From a virus, in the IMG/VR virus record IMGVR_UViG_3300033153_008400, positions 32,001-96,000 of that record: a stretch of 64,000 bases of DNA, one strand, 5' to 3'. Within the stretch, counting starts at the first letter, position 1, and the number at the start of each line of letters is the position of its first letter. Below are positions 1,146-63,923 of the stretch, piece after piece. The notes beneath the pieces were generated by a model. The model was given only the letters and a program-made list of their open reading frames with translations. It was not told the DNA's origin and made no database searches. Both the position numbers and the translations under genes were made by a program.

Positions 1146-2327
1146 ATGGATTTTTCTTTAACAACAGTAGTGGTAGTCCCACCAGGAGCAACAGTAGCTC
1201 CAGTAACGGATTCAACACAGGACTTACTTGCTGGTGAAGTAGGATTTTTCGGAGCTGATTACGTAGGTGTAAGTGCAGGTACAATAGCTGCCCAACCTTA
1301 TTTTTATGTAGCGCAGGGAAGAGAGAATACTTACCTTCAAGGAACAAAACGTTCTGATAAAATTAGTGGATGTCCTCAAGCAGGGGTAGCATGTAACACT
1401 AATGTAACCGAATGGTATAAAGTTGCAGGTTGCATAACACCTACAAATCAAATTGTAGAGATAGATGATTTCACTGTAAAATGTGGTGAAAAACTAACAT
1501 TAACCTTAAGAGGACATTCTAGTTATCTGGATACCCTTTATTTCAACGGATTTACTCGTTCAGTAACTATCAACGCTCCTTGCTGTGACTGTCCTGCTGA
1601 CAATTGTACGGATGTTGATGCAGAGGCTCTGGTAGATGCTCTTATTGTTGCATTGGAAGCAGGTGCTCCTGGGACTAATTCAGACAATATTCTCTTAACA
1701 GATTTTTATACTTTTAGCAAGTTTGGAAGTGGTGCAACTACCAAATTAGTTATTACAGGTGTAGCTGTAACTAAAAACGGACAACCTTGTGATGTCGCTG
1801 CTTATCCAGCAGAATATGATAGAATGTGGTTTAATGTTTGGGTTATTGAAGGACCTGCAACAACTGTAGATTTTATTGTGTATGATGCATGTGAACAAGT
1901 AGCTACGGCGACTGTAACACAAACTTCTAATTATCCTACGGGAACAGCAGAAGAAATTGCACAGTTAGAGAAAAATTACTATAGCTATCAAGTTGGTTAC
2001 CTTAAGCATCTTTACAGAACTGCAGGGTACAACCAAAACTTTGAAAGCCATGTAGTAGCAGGAACTACATATGACACTTACTATATTAAGTTCAATGAAC
2101 TTGATAAGAGTGCATATCAATGGGGTGATTATATCCAAGAAGATAGCACAGTTATCATCGCTATCCCTACTGGAGATGCCGCTGCTTTTGAGGCTATTTT
2201 AGTAGCTGGTTTAGGAGCTGTTGCAGCAGATAATGCTTGTGTAACTACCACAACAACTGTAGCACCGTCGACTACGACAACTACAACTGTTGCGCCAACA
2301 ACTACAACTACTACAACAGGAGCTTAG
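1146..2327 (+). CDS. Putative auxiliary capsid (decoration) protein with C-terminal Thr-rich tail
   Basis: 393 aa, beta-rich and Cys-rich; followed by a strong terminator as expected for a highly expressed gene; synteny with the crAss auxiliary capsid gene; ends TTTTTVAPSTTTTTTVAPTTTTTTTGA. Confidence 0.6.
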   Translation: MDFSLTTVVVVPPGATVAPVTDSTQDLLAGEVGFFGADYVGVSAGTIAAQPYFYVAQGRENTYLQGTKRSDKISGCPQAGVACNTNVTEWYKVAGCITPTNQIVEIDDFTVKCGEKLTLTLRGHSSYLDTLYFNGFTRSVTINAPCCDCPADNCTDVDAEALVDALIVALEAGAPGTNSDNILLTDFYTFSKFGSGATTKLVITGVAVTKNGQPCDVAAYPAEYDRMWFNVWVIEGPATTVDFIVYDACEQVATATVTQTSNYPTGTAEEIAQLEKNYYSYQVGYLKHLYRTAGYNQNFESHVVAGTTYDTYYIKFNELDKSAYQWGDYIQEDSTVIIAIPTGDAAAFEAILVAGLGAVAADNACVTTTTTVAPSTTTTTTVAPTTTTTTTGA

Positions 2328-2350
2328 TAGTAAACAAAATAGTATAACCT

Positions 2351-2398
2351 AAATGTCAGGGGAAAGAGGATAACTCCTATCCTCTGACATTTTTTTAT
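2351..2398 (+). terminator. Rho-independent terminator
   Basis: Hairpin aaatgtcagggga...agga-taac-tcct...tcctctgacattt followed by a T-run, just after the 1146..2327 gene. Confidence 0.8.
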
Positions 2399-2408
2399 TT
2401 TACAAAAA

Positions 2409-2999
2409 ATGGCAACAACTACCACCACGACAACAACAGTAGTAGCCCCTGATTTAAGGCTAGATATATTTGTTCTCGAAACTTATAATGTAAAAACAAT
2501 AGCATTCTCTGATGCATCTATATATCCAAATGATCCTCCAGAAGTAACTCTTCCTACTATAAGGATTACTCCTCCTGGGTTTGATGAAGTCGCACTCCCT
2601 TTTTCAATGGAAACTTATAATGTATACAATTCTGCATCTTTATTAATTTCAGAAGTAGGGACAGAAGACCCTTTACCTGATGGTGTCTGGTCTGTATCTT
2701 ATAGTGTTTTTGATACTAAAACGGTGTGTATAACCAAGTCATTTATGAGGGTTAATAAGATTCAAGAAAAATTTGATAATGCTTTTATGACATTAGATAT
2801 GATGGAATGTGATAGTAAAATTAAGGCTCAAGCTAAAATAGAATTAAATTCCATTTGGTTTTTCATTCAAGGATCAATAGCAGCAGCCAATAATTGTGCT
2901 ATTTTACAATCTGAGAAATTATATGCTAAAGCAGATTCAATGCTTACACGTTTTTTAAACAATAATTGTGGATGTAGTGGATCTTTATACAACTATTAG
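2409..2999 (+). CDS. Putative virion structural protein (tail-hub position) with N-terminal Thr tract
   Basis: 196 aa; LPDGVWSVSY Ig-like strand followed by a helical C-terminus ending CGC; begins MATTTTTTTT; synteny. Confidence 0.5.
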   Translation: MATTTTTTTTVVAPDLRLDIFVLETYNVKTIAFSDASIYPNDPPEVTLPTIRITPPGFDEVALPFSMETYNVYNSASLLISEVGTEDPLPDGVWSVSYSVFDTKTVCITKSFMRVNKIQEKFDNAFMTLDMMECDSKIKAQAKIELNSIWFFIQGSIAAANNCAILQSEKLYAKADSMLTRFLNNNCGCSGSLYNY

Positions 3000-3487: not shown

Positions 3488-3521
3488 AAGACTAAGTTTG
3501 AATAAAATTAAAATATAAAAA

Positions 3522-4364
3522 ATGAAGATACTTATAACACTTGCTCCCTTTGGAGAGGACTTAGGGCCATTCGATTTATACTCTGATGCAGATAATTATG
3601 CTGTTCCTTTTGATACGAATATCCTAGCATCAGAAATTGAGGCAGGATACACTAGTGTATTGGCTCCCGATGATGCTTTAATTATAAGAGCATTATCTAC
3701 AGGTACTTGTACTAATTATTTAAATTTAGTATTACCAACTACCACGACTACTACAACAATAGCCCCTTCTACTACAACGACAACAACATTAGCAGGAATA
3801 TTATGTGAAGAGACAGTTGCCTCAGGAGGATATGGAGTGACTGACAATATTGTAGTTATGGCTTCTGATACAGAAGGTACAGGAGGTATCATCATTATTG
3901 ATTTATCTTGTGTTTCTGTTCCAGATAAATTAGAGATAATTCATAATGGTGTCAAAGTAGCAACAACAGGTGTAGCTGGTGGTAATGCTGGACCATTTGA
4001 TAATGTATATGGAATTCCTAGTAATAACTATCCTACTGGTAGTGGAGATGTACTTCTTATTGACCAATTTGTTGGAGATGGTAAGCCAGGATCTAATCCT
4101 TCAAGGGATGCAGAGTTCTTAGCAGATACAGGTATTCCAGGTATCACAGCTAATAAACAACAATTAATCTGGTGGGAATATACTACTATAGATTATGCAG
4201 TTTCTACTAGTGTAACTATAAGAGTTGTTGGTTATCCAGGAACTTATTGGGAATTTACAAGAAGATGTCCTGCTGTAACAACGACTACTACAACAACAAG
4301 TAGTCCGACAACGACAACGACAACAACAGCTAGTCCTACAACAACGACTACAACGACAATATAA
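3522..4364 (+). CDS. Putative virion decoration protein: GPFDLYS module, Thr linker, beta domain, Thr tail
   Basis: 280 aa; N-terminal ~70-aa module shared with four other ORFs; two Thr tracts. Confidence 0.55.
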   Translation: MKILITLAPFGEDLGPFDLYSDADNYAVPFDTNILASEIEAGYTSVLAPDDALIIRALSTGTCTNYLNLVLPTTTTTTTIAPSTTTTTTLAGILCEETVASGGYGVTDNIVVMASDTEGTGGIIIIDLSCVSVPDKLEIIHNGVKVATTGVAGGNAGPFDNVYGIPSNNYPTGSGDVLLIDQFVGDGKPGSNPSRDAEFLADTGIPGITANKQQLIWWEYTTIDYAVSTSVTIRVVGYPGTYWEFTRRCPAVTTTTTTTSSPTTTTTTTASPTTTTTTTI

Positions 4365-4393
4365 AATGAAAATATTAATTTAATAAAAAAAAT

Positions 4394-5506: not shown

Positions 5507-5752
5507 ATGACAGGAATTGTAACACTATTGGCAGCAGGAATTGATTCAGGCCCATTTAATCTTTATTCAGATGTAGATGGGTTTGTAGTACCATTTGAGA
5601 GCTTAATAGATAAGGCACTGCTATTAGCTGGCTACCCAGTCAACACGATCCCTGGGGGAACGACTAGTATAAGAATTAAGTCCATAAGTGCTGTTTGTTC
5701 AAATTATGTAGATGTAGTAATGCCGACTACAACTACGACAACGACAATATAA
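5507..5752 (+). CDS. Stand-alone GPFDLYS module with Thr tail
   Basis: 81 aa; GPFNLYSDVDGFVVPFE...IRIKS...CSNY followed by PTTTTTTTI. Confidence 0.65.
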   Translation: MTGIVTLLAAGIDSGPFNLYSDVDGFVVPFESLIDKALLLAGYPVNTIPGGTTSIRIKSISAVCSNYVDVVMPTTTTTTTI

Positions 5753-5761: not shown

Positions 5762-8700
5762 ATGATAGTATTATTAACTTTAACAACAGCAGGAACAGAT
5801 ACAGGACCATTTGATTTATATTCAAATGTAGATGATTTTATAACTCCTTTTGAAACAGGGATATTAAAAGCAACTCTTATAGCAGGGTATTCAACTACTG
5901 TGCCTGATGCTGCAACAGTTGTTAGAGTTCAATCTAATAATATTTGTACTAATTATAAAGATATTGTTTTATATAAACCACAATGTTCTCCTTTTGAGGG
6001 TACTGCAGGAGTTCAAACTTATTTTAATCAATATCTTGCACAAGTAATAGCCTTAGATAATTGTAATATTTTTTATTATGGTTATCAATCTTCATATGTT
6101 AACAATCCTGTTGATGAACTTACATATAATTCTAATAGAATTACACTCTTAGATACTTGTGGAAATATTAATCAATCATTTCAAATTAGTTTTGAAACTG
6201 GTTTAAATAGTGTGTATGCTTATACTAATGAAGGTATAGATTTTGATATTGATGGAAATCTTTATATAGGTGGTAATTTTACTACTGTACAAGGGCTTTC
6301 TTATGTAAGACTTGTAAAAATAAAACCTGATGGAACTATAGATTTAACATTTATAGTAGGTACAGGATTTACTGGAGGAGCAAATACAGTTTCCAGACCA
6401 TTTGTAGATGATGCTAATCAGAATGTTTGGGTAGGTGGTAATTATAATACTTATAATGGTTCAGGAGCTTTACAACTTGTAAAACTTGATATGTTTGGTG
6501 CTATAGATCCTTCCTTTACTTCTTTAGGATTTAATAATACAATAGAAGGAATATTAGAAGCTGGTGGTGGTAAAATATGGGTACATGGTTATTTCACTCA
6601 ATACAATTCAATAAACAGAGGTCACTTTATTTTATTGAATAAATCAGATGGTAGTGTAGATGAGAGTTTTGTTTGTCCAACGGGTCCTAATCAATATGGT
6701 AGCCCAGGGGAAGAACCAGCATGTGTAGTAACTGATGGAGATGATTTAATGTTTGTGAGCTTTTATGGAAATACCACATTTGATGGAGTATCTTGTCCAA
6801 GAGACATATTCAAGATAAAACGTAATGGTTCATTAGATGCTACTTTCTCAGCGAATGTAGGTACAGGATTTGATACAGGTGGAATGAGAGTTATTAATGA
6901 TGGTGGTAAATTTGTTATTACTTGTTATTTTACCAATACTACATTGAATGGTGTACCAATACCTAAAATAATTCGATTAAACAATGATGGTACTATAGAT
7001 AATGCCTTTAATTTTGATATGACATCTTGGGATCACTTCTGGGATATTACAAGAGCAGGAGATAATTATTATACAATTGCTTCACCTGGAGACGGTTGGG
7101 GATTAGAGTATCCAATACAAATAGATTTAGATGGTACTGCTAGATTACAAAATGGTTGTCCTGATGAGGATCCTTGTATCGTTACAACAACTACAACCAC
7201 AACTGCTGGTCCTACAACTACGACCACAACAACGACTGCAGCTCCAACTACTACAACGACGACAATTGCGCCAACTACAACTACCACAACTACGGCTAGT
7301 CCTACTACAACTACGACCACTACTATTAGTCCTACGACTACTACAACAACAACTGTGGCTCCAACTACGACTACCACTACAACGGCTAGTCCTACGACTA
7401 CAACCACTACTACGGTTGCACCTACAACGACTACTACCACGACTGTTAGTCCAACAACAACAACTACAACTACCGTAGCACCAACTACGACGACAACTAC
7501 TACAGTTGCTCCGACTACAACGACTACGACAACTGTAGCACCAACAACAACTACCACTACGACTGTAGCGCCTACTACGACGACTACAACAACGATAGCG
7601 CCTACAACTACGACGACTACAACTGTGGCACCTACGACTACAACTACAACTACTGTTAGTCCTACAACTACGACGACCACTATTGCACCAACAACTACGA
7701 CTACAACTATAGCTCCGACTACGACTACGACTACTCTTAGTCCAACGACGACAACTACGACTAGTGCTGCGGCGCCTACTACGACTACAACAACTTCTTG
7801 TGAAGTTTTCCCAGATGGTAATTATTCTGAATTTGAATCTAGTGGAGCTGTAACAACGACTGGTGGAACTCAATTAGCTCTTGATGGTGATGAAGTATTT
7901 GAAGAAGTAACTATACCATTTACTTTTGATTTTTATGGTAACCCATTTACAAGTGTATGGGTTACAGATAATGGATATATGTCTTTTGATGAAATTGATG
8001 GTACAGATTATACTCCTACAGCATTACCTTGGGAGGATCCTAATAGTGGAGACCAATATAAGAACATGTTATTCCCTTATTTCTATGACATGGCTGTAGA
8101 AAATACTTATGGTTATTATATTTACAAGATTACAGAAGGAGTAACTCCTAATAGAGTTTTTGTATTGAGATATGAAAATACTAATTATGATAATAGAGAA
8201 ACTCCAGGTTTACCTGTAATTTTTGAAGTTAGATTATCAGAAACTTCAAATTTAATAGAATATAGATATGGAGTTAGAACAGGAGATGATGCTGGTGATA
8301 TGACTATAGGTGTACAAGAAAATGGAGGAGCTCATTATACTGAGTATGCTGACAGTAGTAATATTGTACCAGGAAAATCACTTATATATTCTCCTAATAC
8401 TTGTTATACACAACCAACAACTACTACGACAACTACTAATCCTTTAGCTCCTTTACTGATACTTAAGACATCTGGTGGATTTACAGGAGATTATAGTCTT
8501 ACTGATAATTATAGTTCTTTCCCATTGGAAGGTGGAAGTGGTATTGTAAATACAGGAGGAACAATAGATTGGGCAATAGATGATACTTTTGGTATTGAAC
8601 ATGTTTATGGAGATCAGCCTAATGATCCTGTTGATGTAATGGACTTTAGTAGTAACCCAGGAGAGATAACAATAACAATGTCTAATGTTCTTGATATGTC

Positions 8701-9814
8701 ATATATAAATCTGAATTACTATTCAGAGCTTACATACATTGAAGCTAAATATCTTCCTAATTTGACAACAATTATATCAGAAGCGTGTTATGTAGAAGAC
8801 TTAATTCTTACAGGAACTTCTAATTTAGAACATATAGAACTTCCAGCATCTAGTTCATATGGTAGTTTAAGTTCATTGACTTTATCACAATCATCTTTAA
8901 CTTATTTAGACCTTGATAATCATACTTTAATAACCTTTGATGCAAGTAATTGTACTGCTTTAGAGACTTTAAATTTACGTAGAAATAGTCTGACAAGTTT
9001 GACTCTTACAGGATTAACAAGTTTAACAGAATTACGTATAGATAATAATCCGTTTATAACTGGTCCTACTATGACAGGATTAACTGCTTTAGAAATTTTA
9101 TATGTAGATAATAATACTGTAATGACTTCATTTAGTATCGCAGCTTGTACAGGTTTATTACAATATCGTGGTGATAAAAATTATACTTTAACATCCTTGA
9201 GTTTCTCAGCAAATACTTTATTAACTTATGTAGATTGTTCTCAGAATTCAGTATTAACCTCTTTAGACTTTGTTAATAATACTGCTTTACTTACTCTTTT
9301 AGTTGATGCTTGTAATCTTTCAACTTTAACAAATGTGAAAAGTACTGTATTGACTAATATAAATTGTGGTAATAATTCAAGTCTTACTACACTTGATCTT
9401 AGTCTTTGTACAGCACTTACTTCATTCTCCTTTGCAAATTCAGGATTATTAGATATGGATCTTACAGCAAATACATTATTAGAAACAATGTATGGTGCTG
9501 GAAGTGATTTACAAGATATAGACCTTACAACATTAGATGTTCTTACATCATTTACAATGAATGATTGTGATTTAGGTTCTGGGGCTGGTATCGATTTAAC
9601 TGGATGTGATGTTTTAGCTTTTGTAAATGTAGAAGGAAATAGTATGACTCCTGCAATGACAGATCAATTGTATATTGATTTAGCAGCAGGAACAGTAGAT
9701 TCAGGTACTTTAATATGTAGAAACAATAGAACAGCAGCTAGTGATGCTGCTCGTGCAACATTATTAGGAGCACCAAGAGGTCCTTGGACTATTCAAGATT
9801 TTTATTCAACATAA
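5762..9814 (+). CDS. Large mosaic adhesin-like virion protein: GPFDLYS module, delta-60-like beta-propeller repeats, long mucin-like stalk, NIDO-like domain, leucine-rich repeats
   Basis: Repeats of YIGGNFT...LVKIKPDGTIDLTF type; about 21 Thr runs; IPFTFDFYGNPFTSVWVTDNGYMSF (NIDO-like); repeated LTxLDxxxNxLTxL (LRR). Confidence 0.7.
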   Translation: MIVLLTLTTAGTDTGPFDLYSNVDDFITPFETGILKATLIAGYSTTVPDAATVVRVQSNNICTNYKDIVLYKPQCSPFEGTAGVQTYFNQYLAQVIALDNCNIFYYGYQSSYVNNPVDELTYNSNRITLLDTCGNINQSFQISFETGLNSVYAYTNEGIDFDIDGNLYIGGNFTTVQGLSYVRLVKIKPDGTIDLTFIVGTGFTGGANTVSRPFVDDANQNVWVGGNYNTYNGSGALQLVKLDMFGAIDPSFTSLGFNNTIEGILEAGGGKIWVHGYFTQYNSINRGHFILLNKSDGSVDESFVCPTGPNQYGSPGEEPACVVTDGDDLMFVSFYGNTTFDGVSCPRDIFKIKRNGSLDATFSANVGTGFDTGGMRVINDGGKFVITCYFTNTTLNGVPIPKIIRLNNDGTIDNAFNFDMTSWDHFWDITRAGDNYYTIASPGDGWGLEYPIQIDLDGTARLQNGCPDEDPCIVTTTTTTTAGPTTTTTTTTAAPTTTTTTIAPTTTTTTTASPTTTTTTTISPTTTTTTTVAPTTTTTTTASPTTTTTTTVAPTTTTTTTVSPTTTTTTTVAPTTTTTTTVAPTTTTTTTVAPTTTTTTTVAPTTTTTTTIAPTTTTTTTVAPTTTTTTTVSPTTTTTTIAPTTTTTTIAPTTTTTTLSPTTTTTTSAAAPTTTTTTSCEVFPDGNYSEFESSGAVTTTGGTQLALDGDEVFEEVTIPFTFDFYGNPFTSVWVTDNGYMSFDEIDGTDYTPTALPWEDPNSGDQYKNMLFPYFYDMAVENTYGYYIYKITEGVTPNRVFVLRYENTNYDNRETPGLPVIFEVRLSETSNLIEYRYGVRTGDDAGDMTIGVQENGGAHYTEYADSSNIVPGKSLIYSPNTCYTQPTTTTTTTNPLAPLLILKTSGGFTGDYSLTDNYSSFPLEGGSGIVNTGGTIDWAIDDTFGIEHVYGDQPNDPVDVMDFSSNPGEITITMSNVLDMSYINLNYYSELTYIEAKYLPNLTTIISEACYVEDLILTGTSNLEHIELPASSSYGSLSSLTLSQSSLTYLDLDNHTLITFDASNCTALETLNLRRNSLTSLTLTGLTSLTELRIDNNPFITGPTMTGLTALEILYVDNNTVMTSFSIAACTGLLQYRGDKNYTLTSLSFSANTLLTYVDCSQNSVLTSLDFVNNTALLTLLVDACNLSTLTNVKSTVLTNINCGNNSSLTTLDLSLCTALTSFSFANSGLLDMDLTANTLLETMYGAGSDLQDIDLTTLDVLTSFTMNDCDLGSGAGIDLTGCDVLAFVNVEGNSMTPAMTDQLYIDLAAGTVDSGTLICRNNRTAASDAARATLLGAPRGPWTIQDFYST
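7184..7795 (+). repeat. Coding tandem repeat of ~30-nt units encoding (T6-8-[VIAL]-[ASG]-P)n
   Basis: About 21 Thr runs separated by VAP/IAP/ASP/VSP; all four Thr codons are mixed, so the DNA units are not identical. Confidence 0.95.
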
Positions 9815-9830: not shown

Positions 9831-10148
9831 ATGGCAATAACAGTATTAATTACAATAACAGCAGCAGGAAATGACCTAGATAATTTTGGGTTATACTCTG
9901 ATACAGATGCTTATGTTACCCCTTTTGAGACAGGAGTGAGCAGAGTGCAACTGTTAGCAGGGTATATTTCTACAGTAGTACCAGATGGAACAACAATCAT
10001 TAGGGTAACCTCTACAGGTTTATGTACAAATAGTGCAGATATTACTATAAATGTGGTGACGACAACTACCACAACAACTGTTGCGCCAACGACGACAACG
10101 ACTACGACAGTAGCTCCAACAACCACCACAACAACTACAACCCCATAG
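9831..10148 (+). CDS. Stand-alone GPFDLYS-like module with Thr tail
   Basis: 105 aa; DNFGLYSDTDAYVTPFETG...VPDGTTIIRVTSTGLCTN followed by three Thr runs. Confidence 0.65.
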   Translation: MAITVLITITAAGNDLDNFGLYSDTDAYVTPFETGVSRVQLLAGYISTVVPDGTTIIRVTSTGLCTNSADITINVVTTTTTTTVAPTTTTTTTVAPTTTTTTTTP

Positions 10149-11497: not shown

Positions 11498-12448
11498 ATG
11501 TCATATTACTATAAGTACAATTTCACATCACCTAAACCAACCTATGCAATTGTAAAGGAAGAGTTAAAAAGTTATTTTGATACAGGTGCAGTAGATGATT
11601 TAATGTTTCCTACTTATCTCACTAAATGCTTAACCAAACTCAGCAGAGCTACAAAGCCTATTGATGAAGTACCTTTATTCATAGTGGACTTTGAAGCAAG
11701 ACTTCCAGATAATTTTCATGCTGCACGCGAAGTATGGATGTGTGCAGAAATAAATATGAGTCCTTTTCAAGACTCTAGTTCATTCTATTCTCAAACAGGA
11801 ACTTGTAGTATGCAAATATCTCCTATGATCGTAGATGGGAATACTTGTGATGGTAATTGTGATTGTCCTACTTGTCCTGACTGTGCAGATGAAGAAGTTA
11901 CTCAGGCTGTGTATAAGAATACGAATATTACTGATAGAGTGTTCAGACAAATGTATCTTTTAAAACCTGGGAATATTTCAGTTAGAAATGATTGTTCAGT
12001 AAATTATTACAGAAATTGGACTAGATATGGTCAAACACCTGGAGCTAACCAAATAGATTCATTCGATATCAGAGATAATAAATTGCAGACTAATTTTAGG
12101 AATGGAACAGTTCATTTGATCTTCTATGCAGAAGATTCTGATAAATGTGGAAATCAACTTATACCAGATAATTATCGTATCAAAGAATATGTTGAAGCAT
12201 TTATCAAATACAAAGTCTTTGAGATGCTTTCTAATCAAATAAATGATGAGACCTTTAATCAGATTCATCAGAAAATGCTTTATTATAAACAACTTTCTGA
12301 TGAGGCATATATTTTAGCTGATATAGAAGTCAAGAAAGAAACTATTGAGAAGAAAATCAGGAAAATAAAAAAAGATAAGAGAAGATTAAATAAGTATGAA
12401 AGAATAACTTCTTCAGGATATGGTTCATCTATTAAACGTAGTATCTAA
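11498..12448 (+). CDS. Tail tubular / ring protein (P22 gp4-like position in crAss-like phages)
   Basis: 316 aa; ARLPDNF and NFRNGTVHLIFY...LIPDN...EAFIKYK; immediately upstream of the muzzle gene; internal Cys cluster. Confidence 0.7.
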   Translation: MSYYYKYNFTSPKPTYAIVKEELKSYFDTGAVDDLMFPTYLTKCLTKLSRATKPIDEVPLFIVDFEARLPDNFHAAREVWMCAEINMSPFQDSSSFYSQTGTCSMQISPMIVDGNTCDGNCDCPTCPDCADEEVTQAVYKNTNITDRVFRQMYLLKPGNISVRNDCSVNYYRNWTRYGQTPGANQIDSFDIRDNKLQTNFRNGTVHLIFYAEDSDKCGNQLIPDNYRIKEYVEAFIKYKVFEMLSNQINDETFNQIHQKMLYYKQLSDEAYILADIEVKKETIEKKIRKIKKDKRRLNKYERITSSGYGSSIKRSI

Positions 12449-55000: not shown

Positions 55001-55145
55001 AGTAGGAGGAGGAATTAATATAAAAGTAAACATAGGAGATGATTGGAAAGAAGCAACAGCTATGAAAATAAACATAGGGGATGATTGGAAGGAAGTGATA
55101 ACTGTAAAACAAAATATAGGAGGAATTTGGAAAACAGTTTTTTAA
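52089..55145 (+). CDS. Receptor-binding / fibre tip protein with three internal repeats
   Basis: 1018 aa, acidic and beta-rich; three copies of YYFDGSD...W.D.TN.DDGS.STY...GTNAP.SG...GGWTWA; short Thr tract; C-terminal (NIG..WK)x3. Confidence 0.65.
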   Translation: MAYPVYQSNGGIGTGTAYEVVVDYPSTVNADDILIACIMDADNDTFDTPFGWTKIYEDGTVNNCSVAFYWKRADGTETGSVTFTSLLNAGSLVAGIMYRYSGCIKTGVPFEEKAQYAVTQATSQVIGWGAMFPANGTDRLAVAFNIVEDNTISGFSGTGWTEDSRLSTSVGGDAHFAAASEEFTTYGSVATWTSGNEYNGGLGLYLLPEPEIDVTLNTADAYDFEEDTTPTLEFTGDAVSNEDLEYEIQIDTVNTFNSDERNDDGYSESNYDTDAPIGDFTTNKGIAQSFTAQSSSILKSLDVYLKKISAPTGNAVAKLYYHGGNYGSITLSAPIGDVLAISDTFDVSTLTTSYETVTFNFPTFFELEEGTYYFISIEYTGDSSNYLEAKIDTSSPTHSGVIAALNSSNEWYGTGFDYDLCFQLKVSIPLIQALSEVPDAGFLNTTDNWEATTYYFDGSDAAAVDSGTDWVDVTNSDDGSISTYAYIPSGTSILKIEGTNAPASGNTITLVRTRIYYDDDDNDTPHWSSYYNLSIPSGGWTWAKVQALESSYLVGGGICTFTVDTNGDAEELLFETFSSYDFRVYKVEIEVITGDWHPFDDNEKVSYTVQPIVPSIIETFYFDGSDLPAEDQGSDWVNVTNLDDGSISTYMYTTSLLSSAIWCDGTNAPSSGSAIVKVRTRIYVENGQGNPLLWDIWDETSTELLTYEDYPIDFSLGWTDYVNVLAPIGGWTWAGVQGLSLAISSGSGSAGQVDVYKMEIEVTSLGPLPAPTGTDVYYWRARAKNPTGINIWDDWSFLATPITTYYFDGSDAGAVDTDAVWTDETNTDDGSTSTYGYTTTLGSETTNEVIIEGTNAPASGADIFSVRARYYANFSGGDGWSDYVELSIPSGGWTWAKLQALEAITYYTQQIGEYGALSIYTNGLGERLLQVIAHNEIATTQYNLYKIELEVTPYKTFELTEATGTTTTTTTVGGGINIKVNIGDDWKEATAMKINIGDDWKEVITVKQNIGGIWKTVF

Positions 55146-57119: not shown

Positions 57120-57127
57120 TACCTTTG
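57120..57127 (+). promoter_or_regulatory. Bacteroidota-type -7 promoter box TACCTTTG
   Basis: Exact TAnnTTTG match in the intergenic gap, about 28 nt upstream of the ATG at 57155. Confidence 0.55.
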
Positions 57128-57154: not shown

Positions 57155-58201
57155 ATGAAGAACGTAAAGTTTATTACTGCATGTCCTGATGATAACTATT
57201 ATACATGGCAAGTCCATTTATGGTTAGAATCTTTGAAAGACTTAGATAAATCCAAAGATGCAATCGTTTTAATCTACAGACCATTGGTTAGGGAACCAAA
57301 TACAAAATGGAAGAAAATTGAAGAGCTTTATCCTGAAGCAGAGTTCAATTATATTGTAGAACGTGTAGGAGAGAACATGAATACGTTGATCGGCATCTAT
57401 ATTCCAATTATAAGAACGTATAGTATGTGGCGTTACTTGAAAGAGAATCCCTCCCTGGGGTTAGATAATGTATTGTTCTTTTGTGATTCAGATATTTTGT
57501 TCACGAAAGATTTCAATATAGATAAATTTTTAGAAGAGGATGATGATGTCAATTATGTATCAGATTCTGTAAGCTATATGGGAGCAGTATACTTTGACAA
57601 CAAGATCAGTGAAGTACTTCCTGAGAAGAAAGAAGAATTCAAGACTCGGGATGTTTTAGCAGAGTTGTTAAGTATCATAGGAGTTGAAAGAGAAGTTGCA
57701 GATAGAAATCAAGAACATAGTGGAGGAGTACAATATATTTTAAAGAATTCTACTCCTGATTTTTGGCAAAAGGTAATGAATGATGCTATTTTGATTAGGA
57801 CGTATATGCAAAAGGTAAACAGAGAGTTTTTTCCTACTCAAGATTTAGGATATCAAAGTTGGTGTGCTGATATGTGGTCAATTTTATGGAATTTATGGTT
57901 TGGTAACCTTGAAGTAAAAGTTGTTCCTGAATTAGATTTTAGTTGGGCATCTTGTAAGATAGACCAATTAGATAAGAAAACGATTTTTCATAATGCAGGA
58001 ATTACAGGAGAGAGTATGCCACACGATGGAGGTGGAACTCATTTATGTTTTTATAAAGGAAAGTACCACAGAGGTTCTGACCCAACTAAAGATCCTGTAT
58101 TAGATCAAATTATAAATAGTGAAGATTCTCAAAAATTTTGTACTTGGTTTTATGCCAAGAAGGTAAAAGAAATTGGAGAAAAATATAAAATAGATTATTA
58201 A
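57155..58201 (+). CDS. GT-A fold glycosyltransferase resembling peptidyl O-glycosyltransferases (GT95 HPAT / GT96 SGT-like)
   Basis: N-terminal FITAC..NYYTWQV, DxD motif FFCDSDILF (57485-57493), GGVQYIL, WCADMW (57860) and a late IFH; the order and spacing resemble the YxxWQ / DxD / WxxEM motifs of HPAT/SGT enzymes. Confidence 0.65.
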   Translation: MKNVKFITACPDDNYYTWQVHLWLESLKDLDKSKDAIVLIYRPLVREPNTKWKKIEELYPEAEFNYIVERVGENMNTLIGIYIPIIRTYSMWRYLKENPSLGLDNVLFFCDSDILFTKDFNIDKFLEEDDDVNYVSDSVSYMGAVYFDNKISEVLPEKKEEFKTRDVLAELLSIIGVEREVADRNQEHSGGVQYILKNSTPDFWQKVMNDAILIRTYMQKVNREFFPTQDLGYQSWCADMWSILWNLWFGNLEVKVVPELDFSWASCKIDQLDKKTIFHNAGITGESMPHDGGGTHLCFYKGKYHRGSDPTKDPVLDQIINSEDSQKFCTWFYAKKVKEIGEKYKIDY

Positions 58202-58218: not shown

Positions 58219-58500
58219 ATGAAAAAAAGAGACCTCAAAGGGTATGTCAGATTCGATGGATCAGGCCGAATTGTAGCAGGAAGTTTAGTACTAAGAAGAA
58301 AAATGCCTAAAGTGGGCAAGTGGCAAGAAGTCCCTTCTTATGAATGTTGTAATACGACGACTACTACTACAGCAGCGCCTACTACGACAACGACTACTAC
58401 GGCAGCTCCGACAACAACAACAACGACCACGGCAGCGCCTACGACTACTACGACAACAACCGTAGCACCGACAACAACAACAACAACAACAGGAGCATAA
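58219..58500 (+). CDS. Mini-mucin: basic ~44-aa head plus five Thr runs
   Basis: MKKRDLKGYVRFDGSGRIVAGSLVLRRKMPKVGKWQEVPSYECC then (T7AAP/VAP)n ending TTTTTTTGA; tightly packed between its neighbours. Confidence 0.75.
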   Translation: MKKRDLKGYVRFDGSGRIVAGSLVLRRKMPKVGKWQEVPSYECCNTTTTTTAAPTTTTTTTAAPTTTTTTTAAPTTTTTTTVAPTTTTTTTGA

Positions 58501-58915: not shown

Positions 58916-59197
58916 GTGGAAACTCTCAGGAAATTCTTTCCTTCGATATTATCTGAGAATGAAGCAACATATTTTGCTCAATTAGAAGGTATAGTTGGTT
59001 CTGTAGATGAACTTAGTTCTTTACAGATAACGCGAACTTCAGATTCTTATGCTTTTAGGATAGCTCCAAGTCATCCTAAGTATAATAATTTGTTGATAGA
59101 AGAATTATTGAAGTATCATAATTTATTTAAAATTAGATTGGATATGTCTAAAAGCATAAAAACATCTGGTACTATTGTATTTAAAATAAGTTTATAA
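58916..59197 (+). CDS. Hypothetical protein
   Basis: 93-aa ORF with a GTG start abutting the upstream stop. Confidence 0.6.
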   Translation: METLRKFFPSILSENEATYFAQLEGIVGSVDELSSLQITRTSDSYAFRIAPSHPKYNNLLIEELLKYHNLFKIRLDMSKSIKTSGTIVFKISL

Positions 59198-59392: not shown

Positions 59393-59686
59393 ATGACAGC
59401 AGAAAAAGATAAAAAAGCACCTATCAAATTAAAAGCAAAACCAGTATATGATCCAGCTAAGAAATACACTTGGCCTAAGGATGCAATATTTGAATTAACA
59501 GGAGATCAATTTGGTCTTTGGTTAAATTCTGTAAGGAATAAAGTAACATCTAAAGAAGCTATGAATTATAGAATAGCTTTTGAAGCAAATAATGTTATTG
59601 AAGGTATAATGGCTAAAGGCGTTGAAGCTGGTGTCATTACAGAAATGGAACAATCTCAACAAAATGGCAAAGAAAACAACTCATAA
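59393..59686 (+). CDS. Hypothetical protein
   Basis: 97-aa ORF downstream of a TAAATTTG box, with an A-rich leader. Confidence 0.65.
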   Translation: MTAEKDKKAPIKLKAKPVYDPAKKYTWPKDAIFELTGDQFGLWLNSVRNKVTSKEAMNYRIAFEANNVIEGIMAKGVEAGVITEMEQSQQNGKENNS

Positions 59687-59814: not shown

Positions 59815-59844
59815 GGGGCCTCTTATTAATTTAAGAGGCCTTTT
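59815..59844. terminator. Terminator between convergent operons
   Basis: ggcctctta-ttaatt-taagaggcc followed by tttt, located at the +/- convergence point. Confidence 0.75.
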
Positions 59845-59849
59845 GTGTG

Positions 59850-60338
59850 TTATTTGATAACGATAAAGTTCTTTCCTGCACCTTTAAAGTATGTTATTCC
59901 TTTATTTAGTTTCTCAGATATACCCCGAGCTAATTCTATTTCAGGTCCTCTGTTTGTATCATCTACTATGATAGGTACAGATGTATCGAACAGGTGTATA
60001 TTATATAAGAATCCTTCACGACCTATGTTCCCAGGAGGACCATCTACCAGAATCATGTCATATTTTACACCTTTGAGTGCAGCTCTTATTGCTATTAACG
60101 AATACCATTTATAATTACGATAAGTTTGTATTGGAGCATATATGTAATTAGAGTCTTCTACATGATTTAACCATCCTTTGTTATGTTCTATTGAATATAC
60201 TTTCCACTTTTTGATTAATTCAGTTGTTCCTGTACCACTACCTAATTCCAATATGGTTTTACCTTCTTCTAAGTTATCAACAATCCATTTGTATAGTTCA
60301 GTGGATATTGCCCACCCATTTAAATTTTTTTCATTCAT
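59850..60338 (-). CDS. Class I SAM-dependent methyltransferase
   Basis: ILELGSGTGT motif I, SIEH, YDMILVDGP, IIVDD. Confidence 0.8.
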   Translation of the reverse strand: MNEKNLNGWAISTELYKWIVDNLEEGKTILELGSGTGTTELIKKWKVYSIEHNKGWLNHVEDSNYIYAPIQTYRNYKWYSLIAIRAALKGVKYDMILVDGPPGNIGREGFLYNIHLFDTSVPIIVDDTNRGPEIELARGISEKLNKGITYFKGAGKNFIVIK

Positions 60339-60344
60339 AATTGT

Positions 60345-60968
60345 TTATATGTGTTGGTTAAGGACTTTGAATTTTTCAATCCAACCAAATCCTTTTTTGT
60401 TATAATGTAAGTCACTGTGAAATGCATTTAAGCAAAATTCAGAAAAGTAAGTGTGTTTTATTTGTGATTTGAATGCTAATAATCGTGTTTTCTTTTCAAC
60501 ATAAAAATCATTAATTTCTACGGCTAAGTTAGGAACCCACATTGTATCAGCAGATGGAGTAAAGTATTCATATAAATTATACTTAGATACCCTAGAGAGC
60601 GAACGACCTAAATTACTAACTTTAACATGGAAGAAATGATTATCTTCTCTACAGGGGATAAATATTGCATCATACTGTTGTAAATTATATTCTTTTTCTA
60701 ATTTATAGACAGCTATGTCTTGTTTAAATTTATTAGGTTCTAGTCCTTCGATATAGATTATGTTTACATTTTCAACATCTTTCCAAAAAGCTATCACTTC
60801 TTCATACCTAGTCTTATTCTTAGTCAAATCTAAGTCACCTCCAAAGCTGAATACATAGATATCAAATACAGTAGATTTAAATTTTAAAATAGTTCCACTC
60901 ATTGAGTATTCTATATCGTCTGGATGTGGACTCAGACACATAACACGATCATTATTTAAGAATTTCAT
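60345..60968 (-). CDS. PIG-L/LmbE-family N-deacetylase
   Basis: LSPHPDDIE metal motif, DNHFFH, K...L.AFKSQ, IEKF. Confidence 0.85.
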   Translation of the reverse strand: MKFLNNDRVMCLSPHPDDIEYSMSGTILKFKSTVFDIYVFSFGGDLDLTKNKTRYEEVIAFWKDVENVNIIYIEGLEPNKFKQDIAVYKLEKEYNLQQYDAIFIPCREDNHFFHVKVSNLGRSLSRVSKYNLYEYFTPSADTMWVPNLAVEINDFYVEKKTRLLAFKSQIKHTYFSEFCLNAFHSDLHYNKKGFGWIEKFKVLNQHI

Positions 60969-61825
60969 ATACTTGGCATTGATTTGAATAATTTTCCAGT
61001 ATAAAATTTAATACCATTCCTACGTAAGAAATCACGTAAATCTTCTGTTATTGGGTTTTGTTCACCATATATCTTCATATCATTTAAATCATAAATGATT
61101 ATTGATTCAGGTAATCCTAATTCTATTCTATTTTTAAGTGGATTATATCCTAAAAATTTTACACCTTTAATTCCTTTTGCAGGGCATAAAACATCATACC
61201 ATCTTTTTAAAATAGGAAGTAATAATTCTGCTCTTTCTTTAGGAAGCAATACTTTTTTAGGATACATGTTTTTCCTAATGACTTTACAAGGTACTCCTGC
61301 AGCCAATGATCCAGAGGGTATATCTTTAGTAATTATGCTACCAATACCTATTACAGTATTATTACCAATGGTAGTATTAGGTAAGACAATACATCTGGCT
61401 GGTAACCATACATTATCTTCTATAGTAACAGGACCAAAATCAGCAGGAAATCCTTGTAGGATATCCAACCATGCTCCGTGTGTCCAGATCATGACACCGT
61501 CGCCTATACCAACATCATTCCCTATTTTAACAGGGCTATTTGGGTTTATTACGGTATTCTCAAAAATACCAACATGGTCTCCTATTTCAACAGTAGCCTC
61601 TGGATTCTTATGACCACCTCTACCAACTTCAACGTTCTTTCCCATATATAAGTAATCACCTGCTGTAAATGTTTGACAATTTATTGTACAACCATCTTTG
61701 ATAACACAACAATCTCCTAGTCTGAATGTACCTTTGACATTAATCTTAACATTATTTCCTATTACGCAGTTTTTACCATAAAGGATTTTATCTGCATTTA
61801 TCATTGCGTTTTTATGTATGCTCAT
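60965..61825 (-). CDS. Hexapeptide-repeat (LbH) sugar acetyltransferase
   Basis: IGDHVGI, IGNDVGIG...IWTH, PVTIEDNVWL...IGNNTVIG.GS.ITKDIP...AAGVPCKVIR. Confidence 0.9.
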   Translation of the reverse strand: MSIHKNAMINADKILYGKNCVIGNNVKINVKGTFRLGDCCVIKDGCTINCQTFTAGDYLYMGKNVEVGRGGHKNPEATVEIGDHVGIFENTVINPNSPVKIGNDVGIGDGVMIWTHGAWLDILQGFPADFGPVTIEDNVWLPARCIVLPNTTIGNNTVIGIGSIITKDIPSGSLAAGVPCKVIRKNMYPKKVLLPKERAELLLPILKRWYDVLCPAKGIKGVKFLGYNPLKNRIELGLPESIIIYDLNDMKIYGEQNPITEDLRDFLRRNGIKFYTGKLFKSMPSI

Positions 61826-62624
61826 TTGATTGATTTTTATTATAAGTTATTATTTCTTCTTGTATATCATCTACATATTGACAAGTATTGAACCAATGAC
61901 TACCCGTTCTTTTTCTTAGATTAATATATTTTTTACTTAGATGTTCAGTAAGTGAATTTTCTATATCATTCAGTGGTATTACCTTAGTTAAGAATTTAGT
62001 ACAATATGCTTCAGTCATAGCAGTACATTTGATATTGTAGCCATTAACTAATTTAGGAATAGCATTGAATCCCTCTTCAATTAATAATTTAAGTTGCTCC
62101 TGGGAGATGATCAAAGATGACTGATGTAGATTCTTGGGTTCCATAAAGTCTTCCCCATTTATTGTTACTATCTTGCCTAGACCTCTGTAAGATGCGTGGA
62201 AGGCTGGTAGTAATTTCCTGCCTTTGTCTTCCTCATAGGTGAGGTTTCCAATAATGTAACCATCTAGTTTATTTTCGCCATAGCTATATTTGACAAACTG
62301 TTTAAAATTCTTTTCATTGAAAGCTATATCGTCTTCTAAATGTATGAATATATCATAGTCATTGACTTTAGATAGCATATCTGCTCTATATAACCATATA
62401 AATTCGGGTTCTGGTTGCCAGCCATTGGCCCACACGGAATTACTGAAGACCTTGGGCTTGATTATGACGCTGACGACGAGTTCAGTGTCCAAATTGAGTG
62501 CTTCTGTAGTATAAATGATGACATCTAAGTCTAAATCAAAGGATTTTAAGTTATTTAATATTTTATTTACATGTCTAACTTTCTTATTGCCTTCATAATT
62601 TGTTATATATACTAATCCTTTCAT
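61812..62624 (-). CDS. Putative GT-A glycosyltransferase
   Basis: YDIFIHLEDDI acidic motif and late EHLS..Y; lies in a glycan-modification operon. Confidence 0.6.
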   Translation of the reverse strand: MKGLVYITNYEGNKKVRHVNKILNNLKSFDLDLDVIIYTTEALNLDTELVVSVIIKPKVFSNSVWANGWQPEPEFIWLYRADMLSKVNDYDIFIHLEDDIAFNEKNFKQFVKYSYGENKLDGYIIGNLTYEEDKGRKLLPAFHASYRGLGKIVTINGEDFMEPKNLHQSSLIISQEQLKLLIEEGFNAIPKLVNGYNIKCTAMTEAYCTKFLTKVIPLNDIENSLTEHLSKKYINLRKRTGSHWFNTCQYVDDIQEEIITYNKNQSNEHT

Positions 62625-63163
62625 TTTTTTACTAATATGGTTAGACCATTATTATTTGTGAATCTTTCTTTAATACTCCATTCAGGATTATCTTCCATAA
62701 ATTCTTCAATAGCTGGCCATAGTCCTAATCTGGAAAGTCCATCATATGATTCACCTATATAAGCATATGTAGTAGTATCATGAAAAATAAGATATTTACT
62801 TACTTTTGGAGCATGTAGTTTAAGTTCTACAGATAGTTGATCATAATTATGAAGAGTATCAATAAACAATAATTCAGTAGGGTCTATCTCTATTTCTAAG
62901 GTATTACCTATTATAAATTGAAAATTTGTATAATTTTCTTCTAAAGCTTGTTTTTGAAGAGGTTTCCAATCACAATTTCTTATATCATATGATATTAATG
63001 TATAAGGATGTCCAGCCAGTAAAGCATATGTAGAAACAATTCCTCTAACTCCCATTTCTGTTACATGTCTACATTTTTTAGCATATCTTTTCAGAATAGG
63101 TAAGTGTTCGTTTATGTCTGAGGGTTTATCCCACAGTTCTTGATATTTATTTTCTATGTTCAT
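62621..63163 (-). CDS. Class I SAM-dependent methyltransferase (Methyltransf_24-like)
   Basis: SDINEHL, VTEMGVRGIVST, LLFIDTLH.Y, YLIFHDT, NNNGLTIL. Confidence 0.8.
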   Translation of the reverse strand: MNIENKYQELWDKPSDINEHLPILKRYAKKCRHVTEMGVRGIVSTYALLAGHPYTLISYDIRNCDWKPLQKQALEENYTNFQFIIGNTLEIEIDPTELLFIDTLHNYDQLSVELKLHAPKVSKYLIFHDTTTYAYIGESYDGLSRLGLWPAIEEFMEDNPEWSIKERFTNNNGLTILVKK

Positions 63164-63923
63164 TACAATAATCTTTAAGTTGTTGTTGATAATCTATATC
63201 CCAGTGAGGATTTAGTACAATGTTACCTGTAGGAATGTTTCCTTTAACACGTTCACTTTCTATGTGCTCAGAATTCCTTACTACAATATTAGGTCTTGTA
63301 TCGTTGTCTTTGCCTAAGCCTGATTGATGATAGGACCTATTTGCCCAGTAATAGAACCAACTTACTTCATCATCTGGAGGGAATGCTCGAACAACTTTTT
63401 CATCACCCAGAGCTCTGATGGATACAACCAATACCATGTCTCCACCTGCATTCATGAGTGGACTCTTTCCGATGGCTTCCCATGCCCCTTTGGAGTACAC
63501 TATACCTGAATTACCTATAGTCATTATCTTAGATATTTTCTTATTGTTATAAGCTACTCCTCGGTTCCAATGTAATAAGTTAGTGTCCTTCTTCCAATAC
63601 TTAACTACATTCTGTAAGTGGTTAGGCATAGCTATGTCATCATCATCCCACACAGCTATTAGCGGCCCTTTACAGAGTTCTATAGCATAGTTCTCTTTCT
63701 CACCTATCAGTGGAAAGGTATCATCAAGGTTATATATCTTTACTTGAGGATGACTAAATTTTAATTTTTGTAGTGGATAGTCATTTACAATGATGAGTTC
63801 ACACTTATCAGCAGGATAGTCCTGGATAAGAAAACTATGGAGAGCCTCTTCTAATGTAGGGACTCTGCCGTGCGTGATGCACTTGCATGAAATCATAGGA
63901 TATTCTTTATCTTTATCATACAT
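63147..63923 (-). CDS. GT2-family glycosyltransferase
   Basis: ISCKCITHGR...LEEAL.SFLIQDY...ELIIVND...IGEKENYA...IAVWDDDD. Confidence 0.85.
   Translation of the reverse strand: MYDKDKEYPMISCKCITHGRVPTLEEALHSFLIQDYPADKCELIIVNDYPLQKLKFSHPQVKIYNLDDTFPLIGEKENYAIELCKGPLIAVWDDDDIAMPNHLQNVVKYWKKDTNLLHWNRGVAYNNKKISKIMTIGNSGIVYSKGAWEAIGKSPLMNAGGDMVLVVSIRALGDEKVVRAFPPDDEVSWFYYWANRSYHQSGLGKDNDTRPNIVVRNSEHIESERVKGNIPTGNIVLNPHWDIDYQQQLKDYCNEHRK

Follow-up and report, generated by a model that had tools for sequence, protein, structure and literature searches.

A candidate phage glycosyltransferase tied to poly-threonine tracts on predicted particle proteins of a putative crAss-like phage

Virion glycosylation by phage-encoded enzymes has been described, in the literature that we reached, for mycobacteriophages only. 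In the accessible text of two reports, glycosyltransferases encoded by these phages glycosylate terminal extensions of virion surface proteins (PMC12619734, PMC12894461). Here, we analyzed a window of 64,000 nucleotides (bases 32001-96000 of one 122,743-bp viral contig, IMG/VR record IMGVR_UViG_3300033153_008400, with a completeness rating of 100%), which encodes a glycosyltransferase-like protein, 57155, and nine proteins with runs of threonine (Thr). Forty open reading frames (ORFs) were translated in the window, and genes are named by the window coordinate of their start. A functional tie between this phage glycosyltransferase and the poly-Thr tracts on particle proteins is strongly supported by the comparisons given below. 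Virion O-glycosylation, in which sugar would be placed on the Thr runs in dependence on 57155, is the explanation that we favor, with a probability of roughly 0.6, and the virus particle is probably sugar-coated.

Virion glycosylation in the mycobacteriophages Che8, Corndog and Myrna was reportedly described by Freeman et al. in Cell Host Microbe in 2023. As far as the accessible text presents the mycobacteriophage system, its likeness to the system predicted here lies in the phage-encoded glycosyltransferases and in the glycans, putative in the present case, on terminal extensions. The enzymes, however, differ: a search of the complete Che8 genome with a 60-sequence profile of 57155 returned no match at E <= 1, while the positive controls scored 9e-82 and 1e-96, and none of 77 phage records that tblastn retrieved with 57155 is filed under Mycobacterium when tallied by the first word of the organism name. 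The acceptors differ as well. No poly-Thr end is present on the capsid and tail proteins of Che8, and whereas mycobacteriophage glycans are reported to sit on the C-termini of capsid and tail-tube proteins, the major capsid protein bears no Thr run here and the runs are found on accessory, fibre and muzzle-like proteins. The host phylum is also different. By analogy, the predicted system works like mycobacteriophage virion glycosylation, but it is not a member of it.

Other comparable systems lie outside the phages. In the serine-rich-repeat adhesins of Gram-positive bacteria, long hydroxy-amino-acid repeats receive their sugars in the cytoplasm from soluble enzymes, first from GtfA/B and then from GlyE and others; these adhesins are Ser-rich and exported by accessory Sec, and their initiating enzyme is of the GT-B type. 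GlyE, an extending GT-A enzyme, is among the fold matches of 57155, whereas the tracts here are of Thr and nothing is exported. Chlorovirus PBCV-1 provides A64R, a virus-encoded and host-independent GT-A enzyme acting on the capsid protein, which is matched by 57155 with a Z score of 11.4 and a root-mean-square deviation (rmsd) of 3.4 over 193 aligned residues; PBCV-1, however, is a eukaryotic virus with an atypical N-linkage and no Thr-repeat tag. Animal mucin PTS domains are built, like the tracts described here, of tandem Pro/Thr repeats, and the longest array here comprises 21 units, or about 205 residues, in 5762. Mucins, in contrast, are secreted proteins that depend on Golgi GT27 enzymes equipped with lectin domains, and no GT27-type enzyme is encoded here.

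Runs of five to eight Thr (T5-8; T5+, T6+ and T7+ below denote runs of at least that length) were present in 9 of the 40 ORFs, 51 runs in all. These are exactly the nine genes that an earlier reading of the sequence, hereafter the original prediction, had named as carrying T6-8-x-x-P tracts at termini or domain linkers:

1146..2327, plus strand: head-module protein of 393 amino acids with three C-terminal Thr runs (3 runs in total)
2409..2999, plus strand: virion structural protein with an N-terminal T8 run at residues 3-10 (phrog_31752 'virion structural protein', E 3.2e-9; 1 run)
3522..4364, plus strand: 70-residue N-terminal module, two Thr runs, a middle domain and three C-terminal runs (5 runs)
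5507..5752, plus strand: protein of 81 amino acids, the 70-residue module followed by one C-terminal T7 run (1 run)
5762..9814, plus strand: fibre-like protein of 1350 amino acids with the 70-residue module, DUF5122 beta-propeller repeats, a Thr stalk and a region resembling leucine-rich repeats (LRR) (22 runs)
9831..10148, plus strand: protein of 105 amino acids, the 70-residue module with three C-terminal Thr runs (3 runs)
12448..18081, plus strand: muzzle-like virion protein of 1877 amino acids with ten Thr runs in the C-terminal 350 residues (phrog_37948 'virion structural protein', E 2.1e-105; 10 runs)
52089..55145, plus strand: protein of 1018 amino acids in the tail-fibre region with one T7 run near the C-terminus (1 run)
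58219..58500, plus strand: small protein with a basic N-terminal module of 45 residues ending in ECCN, followed by five T6-7 runs (5 runs)

The remaining 31 ORFs, including 18956, 23027, 25967 and a 6405-residue ORF at 28818-48035, contain no T5+ run, and no further ORF with such a run came to light when all six frames of the complete 122,743-bp genome were scanned. All nine tract genes lie in the structural half of the genome. The repeat unit consists of T6-8 and a three-residue spacer that ends in Pro (VAP 14 times, IAP 5, AAP 4, ASP 3, plus a few variants). Runs are C-terminal in 1146, 3522, 5507, 9831, 12448 and 58219, N-terminal in 2409 only, and placed between domains in 3522, 5762 (residues 475-680) and 12448 (residues 1695-1760). 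A Kyte-Doolittle scan of the nine proteins revealed no hydrophobic N-terminal segment, in agreement with the earlier view that they have no obvious signal peptide. Thr codons inside the runs are mixed (ACT 123, ACA 126, ACG 75, ACC 24), with an enrichment of ACG (75/348 against 19/452 outside the runs of the same genes), and the repeat units of 5762 agree at third positions with a frequency of 0.31, the random expectation likewise being 0.31. Because synonymous sites between repeats are fully scrambled and the codons are mixed, selection acts on the peptide and not on the DNA.

Several of the carriers share further features. A module of about 70 residues (GPFDLYS type) forms the N-terminus of 3522, 5507, 5762 and 9831 and is weakly recognizable at about 18099-18308 on the plus strand; poly-Thr follows it in four of these five proteins, and it may be a common docking domain. 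In 5762, the beta-propeller match (PF17164, E 1.2e-24) precedes the stalk, a series of 21 decapeptide Thr repeats, and weak LRR matches follow it. Residues 882-1438 of 12448 are 28-36% identical to proteins of Lbo-JY46, Cellulophaga phi4:1 and csAssE-Sib; the phi4:1 protein is annotated as a virion structural protein from tandem mass spectrometry (MS/MS) proteomics, and the csAssE-Sib protein is annotated 'Muzzle protein'. A search of Protein Data Bank (PDB) sequences gave nothing useful for 12448. No match was obtained for 1146 in PHROG, in tblastn against phage records or in the PDB sequence search, and 52089 had no family match.

The phage belongs to a clade whose major capsid protein, encoded with terminase and portal just upstream of the window (genome 23657-31282), is 91-92% identical over at least 600 viral contigs; a locus search with gene 10214 returned only 10 close relatives. 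We counted orthologues and their tracts in 80 capsid-linked loci of relatives. An orthologue of 1146 was present in 79 of the 80, with a T5+ run in 25 of the 79, and T5+ runs were found on 1 of 78 orthologues of 2409 and on 9 of 78 orthologues of 3104. Orthologues of 5762 carry 0 to 8 runs, compared with 22 here. The Thr tag therefore comes and goes on a given protein within the clade.

The candidate enzyme is encoded directly before 58219:

57155..58201, plus strand: candidate initiating glycosyltransferase, 348 amino acids, soluble, GT-A fold, GT8-like (phrog_4417, E 2.5e-48)

The match of 57155 to phrog_4417, a family of unknown function, is full-length (residues 5-340), and the 57155 family comprises 1188 proteins at E <= 1e-5 in one database and 692 cluster representatives at E <= 1e-3 in another. 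No Pfam or NCBIfam family matched the protein, and no Pfam family did so even at E <= 10. An AlphaFold (AF2) model built from a 60-sequence alignment reached a predicted local distance difference test score (pLDDT) of 97 and a predicted template modeling score (pTM) of 0.93. Ten residues (Y82, D111, D113, Y141, Y146, Q234, F262, H279, K301 and Y333) are invariant in the 60 homologues, D111 and D113 forming the DxD motif. Foldseek placed the model next to WbbM, the catalytic domain of UGGT, glycogenin and XXYLT1 at E of about 1e-6. A structural search returned 104 chains at Z >= 8 with named glycosyltransferases on top, namely glycogenin (Z 14.8, rmsd 3.8, 235 residues aligned), LgtC (14.0) and the Skp1 alpha-galactosyltransferase (13.9), followed by WbbM (13.6), UGGT (13.5), GlyE (11.9) and PBCV-1 A64R (11.4). 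Several of these nearest folds belong to enzymes that act on proteins or on protein-bound glycans. On the basis of the model, we assign 57155 with high confidence to the GT-A glycosyltransferases, with a fold closest to the GT8 type.

The similarity to GT8-type enzymes (glycogenin, LgtC, Skp1 alpha-galactosyltransferase, UGGT and GlyE) extends to the shared fold and the DxD motif, with Z 14.8-11.9 over 213-245 aligned residues, at only 9-13% identity. A sequence-level assignment to CAZy family GT8 was considered and rejected: the Pfam search at E <= 10 was empty, and 0 of 60 family members match the GT8 model. As judged from the structural model, the GT8 likeness is in the fold only. The 60-homologue profile found no solved structure among PDB sequences, the best match being a designed protein at E 0.0046. 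No transmembrane segment was found in 57155, and the ESM Atlas returned only unnamed viral clusters for 57155 and for 61812, a second transferase discussed below. When ten long fused forms of the 57155 family were looked up, one name was obtained, 'SAM-dependent methyltransferase' (SAM, S-adenosylmethionine).

The original prediction had described 57155 as an enzyme resembling peptidyl-O-glycosyltransferases. The glycosyltransferase part of this description agrees with the GT-A fold; the relation to GT95/96 is not supported, HMMER having detected no similarity to the plant enzymes. Plant HPAT (GT95, PF23452) and SGT1 (GT96) share with the present system the idea of placing the first sugar on hydroxy-amino acids of repetitive proteins, but there is no HMMER-level relation between HPAT and the 57155 family, 0 of 60 members of which match the HPAT profile PF23452. 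The same profile found nothing in the genome at E <= 10, and control genomes likewise gave nothing, so that this result is not proof of absence. One ESM-Atlas neighbour cluster of 57155 carries PF23452 on 10% of its members, which hints at a remote link between 57155 and HPAT.

Evidence for a connection between enzyme and tracts comes from a second set of 80 viral loci, each of which encodes a 57155 relative (53-61% identical). A T6+ ORF was present in 75 of them. Run density was 1.06 per kb in the 1 kb upstream of the enzyme gene and 0.83 in the bin containing the gene and the first kb downstream; it fell to 0.30 per kb in the next bin and, beyond 2 kb, to about 0.05 upstream and 0.014 downstream. 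A T6+ run lay within 1 kb downstream of the enzyme gene in 60 of the 80 loci and within 1 kb upstream in 56. In 16 loci that we read, the upstream flank encodes an N-terminal module of about 35 residues (MAIPS.QIG...LLWQISKQLE type) followed by poly-Thr and often by a variable end domain, and the downstream flank encodes a module of about 45 residues of the 58219 type followed by poly-Thr; in the relatives inspected, this 58219-type module with its poly-Thr tail stands directly downstream of the enzyme gene. The end domains behind the stalks include Fib_succ_major, Laminin_G_3 or a ConA-like lectin fold, Lcl_C, the DUF5122 beta-propeller and beta-helix.

Whole records gave a similar picture. 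T6 codon runs were found in all 15 enzyme-bearing records tested in this way (the phage's own genome, G010, G011, ten of 21 long capsid-linked records, phiFL1A and MA9V-3), almost all of them on the gene strand and well above a reversed-pattern control. No T6 run occurred in five complete genomes that lack the enzyme, those of Leptolyngbya phage Lbo-JY46, Cellulophaga phage phi4:1, csAssE-Sib, Bacteroides phage crAss001 and Cellulophaga phage phi14:2. A further 11 capsid-linked fragments without the enzyme are uninformative on absence.

The pairing extends to distant phages. By tblastn, a 57155-type enzyme was detected in 77 phage records at 23-30% identity, which by genus comprise Lactobacillus (23), Enterococcus (21), Staphylococcus (11), Lactococcus (8), Clostridium (3) and others, including one Chryseobacterium. 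We opened eight distant phages with enzymes 24-30% identical, and in all eight, genes near the enzyme carry Thr-repeat tails; several of the Thr-tailed genes are annotated as head, tail or portal. Enterococcus phiFL1A has poly-Thr ends on both its major head protein and its major tail protein, and its enzyme is encoded immediately after the major tail gene. Clostridium phiCTP1 has Thr tails on the portal, a head protein and the tail tube near the enzyme gene, and Lactococcus 1706 has them on a head protease/capsid fusion and on the major tail protein. Long Ser/Thr runs occur on two genes just upstream of the enzyme in Chryseobacterium MA9V-3, and Thr tails near the enzyme gene were also seen in Lactobacillus Semele, Staphylococcus PT94 and Lacticaseibacillus R3.3. 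In Lactobacillus SAC12B (L301 7686-8979), the two genes before the enzyme, one annotated 'holin' and the other for an Ig-domain protein, have (PTTV-x)n repeats at their ends in place of homopolymeric Thr, and these repeats may be a variant form of the tag.

Because the tracts of relatives are concentrated less than 1 kb from the enzyme gene, accompany it in 8 of 8 distant phages and are absent together with it from 5 of 5 complete genomes of relatives or crAss-like phages, we regard the glycosyltransferase and the tracts as functionally tied. The co-occurrence of tracts and 57155 homologues, which the original prediction had named as its check, held in the direction from enzyme to tracts. The converse was weak. 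Among 118 viral stretches chosen solely by a T7 codon pattern, 91 had an in-frame T7+ ORF, and the enzyme was found within the stored stretch in 6 of these 91. A tract alone does not prove the presence of a 57155-type enzyme, and the other 85 loci may have other enzymes serving the tracts or put the tracts to other uses.

Downstream of 58219, six genes on the opposite strand form a cluster at 59850-63923:

63147..63923, minus strand: GT2 glycosyltransferase, the conserved partner of 57155 (PF00535, E 3.8e-11, 43.7 bits against a cut-off of 23.3)
62621..63163, minus strand: possible methyltransferase, weak (CmcI E 0.035, Methyltransf_24 E 0.063)
61812..62624, minus strand: second GT-A (GT2-like) glycosyltransferase (AF2 pLDDT 91.7; no family match)
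60965..61825, minus strand: hexapeptide-repeat sugar acetyltransferase (PF00132, Hexapep, E 7.4e-12)
60345..60968, minus strand: PIG-L/LmbE-like putative deacetylase, weak (PF02585, E 3.4e-5, below the curated cut-off)
59850..60338, minus strand: possible SAM-dependent methyltransferase, weak (RrnaAD E 0.16; NCBIfam E 0.0023)

The original prediction had seen here an operon with two more glycosyltransferases, two methyltransferases, an acetyltransferase and a deacetylase. Both transferases are borne out, 63147 by its Pfam match and 61812 by its fold, which resembles SpsA (Z 13.6, rmsd 3.4, 193 residues aligned), WrtF (13.1) and TarP (11.7) and includes an invariant EDD motif (E97, D98, D99). 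The acetyltransferase is likewise confirmed by its Hexapep match, and 60965 also has WcaF-like (2.6e-18), LacA-like and NeuD-like matches. For the deacetylase, the PIG-L match of 60345 and an N-terminal BshB1 motif (E 2.9e-8) agree with the proposal, whereas the Pfam score is sub-threshold. The methyltransferases were not supported: the best scores were 14.3-14.6 bits for 62621 against cut-offs of 23-26 and 11.5 bits for 59850 against a cut-off of 24, and PDB searches of both gave marginal hits only, 59850 matching a methyltransferase at E 0.027 over 29 residues. No transmembrane segment was found in any of the eight enzymes here.

In 42 of the 80 enzyme loci, a homologue of 63147 follows the enzyme gene at a downstream distance of 2.8-9.3 kb, with 41 of the 42 on the opposite strand; among the 44 loci that have at least 9.5 kb of flank, 36 possess it. 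Homologues of 61812 and 60965 were each present in 0 of the 80 loci, and that of 62621 in 1. The slot between enzyme and GT2 is occupied in relatives by methyltransferases (a Methyltransf_24 protein in 14 loci, FkbM and others), further GT2s (of families present in 22 and 10 loci), a hexapeptide acetyltransferase or a TOD1/MUCI70-like domain. From these gene contents, the two transferases appear to form a conserved core, to which an exchangeable set of tailoring enzymes is added.

Taken together, these data lead us to a putative mechanism in which a glycan coat is built on the poly-Thr stalks and tails of particle proteins, inside the infected cell, by soluble enzymes of the phage. 57155 would take a nucleotide sugar and start the glycan on the Thr hydroxyls of the T6-8-x-x-P runs; judging by its fold type, it may be a retaining enzyme, in which case the sugar would be alpha-linked. 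The Thr run would serve as a portable tag, placed on different carriers in different relatives. The conserved GT2 63147 would probably extend the glycan, and the strain-variable enzymes, 61812 and 60965, perhaps 60345 and the two doubtful methyltransferases, would make it diverse. Once modified, the proteins would enter virion assembly, with short N-terminal modules as anchors. Glycosylated Thr runs would form stiff, protease-resistant stalks, which in this phage and its relatives bear beta-propeller, LRR, lectin-like and adhesin-like end domains. Of the mucin-coat interpretation with which the analysis began, the tie between enzyme and tracts was upheld, the role of the operon was retained in part and the kinship with plant peptidyl-glycosyltransferases found no support. 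The tracts, the folds of the enzymes, the linkage of the genes and their co-occurrence are observed; we infer from them that sugar is attached at all, and likewise its donor, the sequence in which the enzymes act and what the coat does.

Several observations weigh against this explanation. There is no chemical evidence of a glycan for this phage or, in the searchable literature, for any phage with this enzyme family, and nothing about the 57155 family, phage proteins with poly-Thr tails or the glycosylation of crAss-like phages was found in the same literature. No Thr tract is present on the major capsid protein, so the coat would be one of stalks and accessory proteins. A virion location of 58219, 1146, 3522, 5507, 5762, 9831 and 52089 is assumed from gene position only. 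All five near-complete members of the clade have the enzyme, which leaves no internal contrast, and the positive records are not independent, many of them coming from one clade with capsid proteins 91-92% identical. Besides its presence in only 6 of the 91 T7-bearing loci, the enzyme was found in 1 of 9 whole records of multi-tract loci, one record of 100% completeness lacking it, and Lactobacillus SAC12B has the enzyme with no T6 run in 136.6 kb. Finally, the five cluster genes other than 63147 recur in 0-1 of the 80 enzyme loci, and the cluster lies on the strand of the replication genes.

The last two observations bear on the role of the cluster. The original prediction had the minus-strand operon extending and capping the glycan, a proposal favored by the conservation of the GT2 and disfavored by the rarity of the other five genes; we place the participation of the minus-strand genes in the glycan pathway somewhat below even odds. 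Alternatively, 57155 may glycosylate the tracts as proposed while the cluster serves a host surface polysaccharide, a small molecule or phage DNA. The host surface would be modified for superinfection exclusion or receptor masking. Such a division of labor would account for the strand of the cluster, which abuts the replication and early genes, and for the best named matches of 60965 and 63147, which are enzymes of exopolysaccharide, colanic acid and lipopolysaccharide synthesis; a PurZ-like gene in the genome indicates that DNA modification may occur. However, it sits poorly with the recurrence of the GT2 at a short distance from the enzyme gene and with a slot that in relatives is always filled by sugar-handling enzymes. 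No flippase, polymerase, lipid-carrier transferase or membrane segment was found, and no base hydroxymethylase is among the annotated genes, the replication module being annotated only in part. We consider this alternative rather improbable, although it stands well above those that follow.

A second possibility is that the Thr runs are unglycosylated linkers or spacers, that 57155 has another substrate and that the linkage reflects shared placement among late genes. Thr/Pro-rich linkers function sugar-free in many recombinant proteins, 85 of the 91 T7-bearing viral loci are without the enzyme, and no glycan has been seen. This would leave unexplained, however, why Thr-run genes flank the enzyme on both sides in most of its loci, why the pairing recurs in siphophages and myophages of Bacillota on proteins annotated as major capsid, tail tube and portal and next to an enzyme only 24-30% identical, and why the five enzyme-less relatives or crAss-like phages are free of any run. 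In addition, the terminal pure-Thr tails of 1146, 5507, 9831 and 58219 link nothing and so are not linkers. We regard this possibility as quite unlikely.

The host could also contribute. The window contains candidate promoter elements, one of them in front of the enzyme gene:

57120..57127, plus strand: TAnnTTTG box, candidate Bacteroidota-type -7 element, 27 nt upstream of the 57155 start

Of 30 plus-strand genes, five (3522, 23027, 25967, 57155 and 59393) are preceded by a TAnnTTTG box at a distance of 19-29 nt (boxes at 3493, 22990, 25931/25940, 57120 and 59360 of the window, plus strand); the background frequency of such boxes is 0.075 per 100 nt per strand. The exact word TACCTTTG was not enriched (6 occurrences compared with 2.75 expected; 6 of 100 shuffles reached 6). 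The placement of the box at a fixed distance looked non-random, and the boxes fit Bacteroidota-type promoters, which suggests a Bacteroidota host. Bacteroidota possess a general protein O-glycosylation system, as stated in the accessible part of one report (PMC12386605), and the tracts might accordingly be modified by this host machinery and not by the phage enzyme. Such machinery would not explain the pairing in phages of Gram-positive bacteria, and the nine proteins have no signal peptide. The Bacteroidota system works extracytoplasmically and recognizes the motif D-(S/T)-(A/I/L/V/M/T), which the runs do not contain, and we find modification by the host very improbable. Equally remote is the idea that the runs are DNA-level features, such as hot spots of slippage or recombination that allow phase or length variation, with the amino acids as a by-product: run number varies greatly among orthologues of 5762 and 1146, but the mixed codons with chance-level third positions are the opposite of a slippage-prone repeat, and the enrichment of ACG in the runs breaks up DNA repetitiveness.

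Returning to O-glycosylation of the tracts by 57155, we speculate on a wider scheme, which we hold to be tentative and, as a whole, less likely than not. The Thr tag would be portable and movable, read by one widespread phage glycosyltransferase family in phages of Bacteroidota, Bacillota and others, and would have spread to many stalk and accessory proteins in an abundant aquatic clade, while the tailoring genes beside the conserved GT2 would be swapped between near-identical phages, resulting in a strain-specific virion 'glyco-serotype' on mucin-like stalks. Such a glyco-serotype, if it exists, would be the phage counterpart of O-antigen diversity, and the tag and its soluble enzyme would make up a ready-made two-part system for cytoplasmic O-glycosylation. 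Independently of this wider scheme, if the favored explanation of O-glycosylation by 57155 is right, phages of very different bacteria sugar-coat their particles by means of an enzyme family unrelated to that of the mycobacteriophages and a simple sequence tag, and the carriers would include a very abundant environmental clade, to which at least 600 viral contigs of the collection are related by their capsid gene. The tag and enzyme might then also provide a compact tool for producing O-glycoproteins in the bacterial cytoplasm. The explanation would bear on protease resistance, on sticking to surfaces or mucus and on evading recognition. It would also bear on the annotation of structural proteins, as Thr tails would mark exposed positions, and on cryo-EM maps and virion proteomics, in which modified peptides go missing.

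The label 'crAss-like' rests on the 28-36% match of 12448 to an annotated muzzle protein and on gene order, a muzzle homologue followed by large ORFs being the crAss-like layout. Among the phages matched by 12448, phi4:1 is classed outside Crassvirales in its record. Bacteroides phage crAss001 and Cellulophaga phage phi14:2 have neither enzyme nor tracts. From gene order, the large ORFs at 18956-48035 are plausibly ejected cargo and virion RNA polymerase, and 18956 contains a lysozyme/transglycosylase-like stretch. The original prediction had stated that cargo proteins and virion RNA polymerase are free of tracts. The absence of runs was confirmed, but the identity of the polymerase was not: the sole family match of the 6405-residue single ORF (28818-48035, plus strand) was phrog_32390, of unknown function, at residues 81-501.

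The genes around 57155 and the cluster deserve brief mention. Directly before the enzyme gene, a protein of 187 amino acids (56546-57109, plus strand) combines a signal of the lipoprotein type (...FLIGC) with a hydrophobic segment at its C-terminus (maximum Kyte-Doolittle value 2.25), presumably the layout of a unimolecular spanin; a relative of it was present in 0 of the 80 enzyme loci. After 58219 follow three small plus-strand genes (58505-58915, 58916-59197 and 59393-59686), kept in 67, 71 and 65 of the 80 loci, the first of which encodes a DUF5856 protein (phrog_858 'starvation-inducible transcriptional regulator'). Between the GT2 gene and the replication genes lies an ORF of 98 amino acids (genome 95916-96212, minus strand; window 63916-64000 and beyond), whose match to a homing-endonuclease PHROG (E 3.6e-6) is confined to the C-terminal part of that family. 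The PurZ-type gene mentioned above is located 30.5 kb before the window start (genome 452-1537, minus strand, 361 amino acids); it is adenylosuccinate-synthetase-like and matches phrog_1211 (E 1.3e-52), whose library name is '2-aminooxy adenylosuccinate synthetase', and its presence suggests that adenine in the phage DNA may be replaced by 2-aminoadenine.

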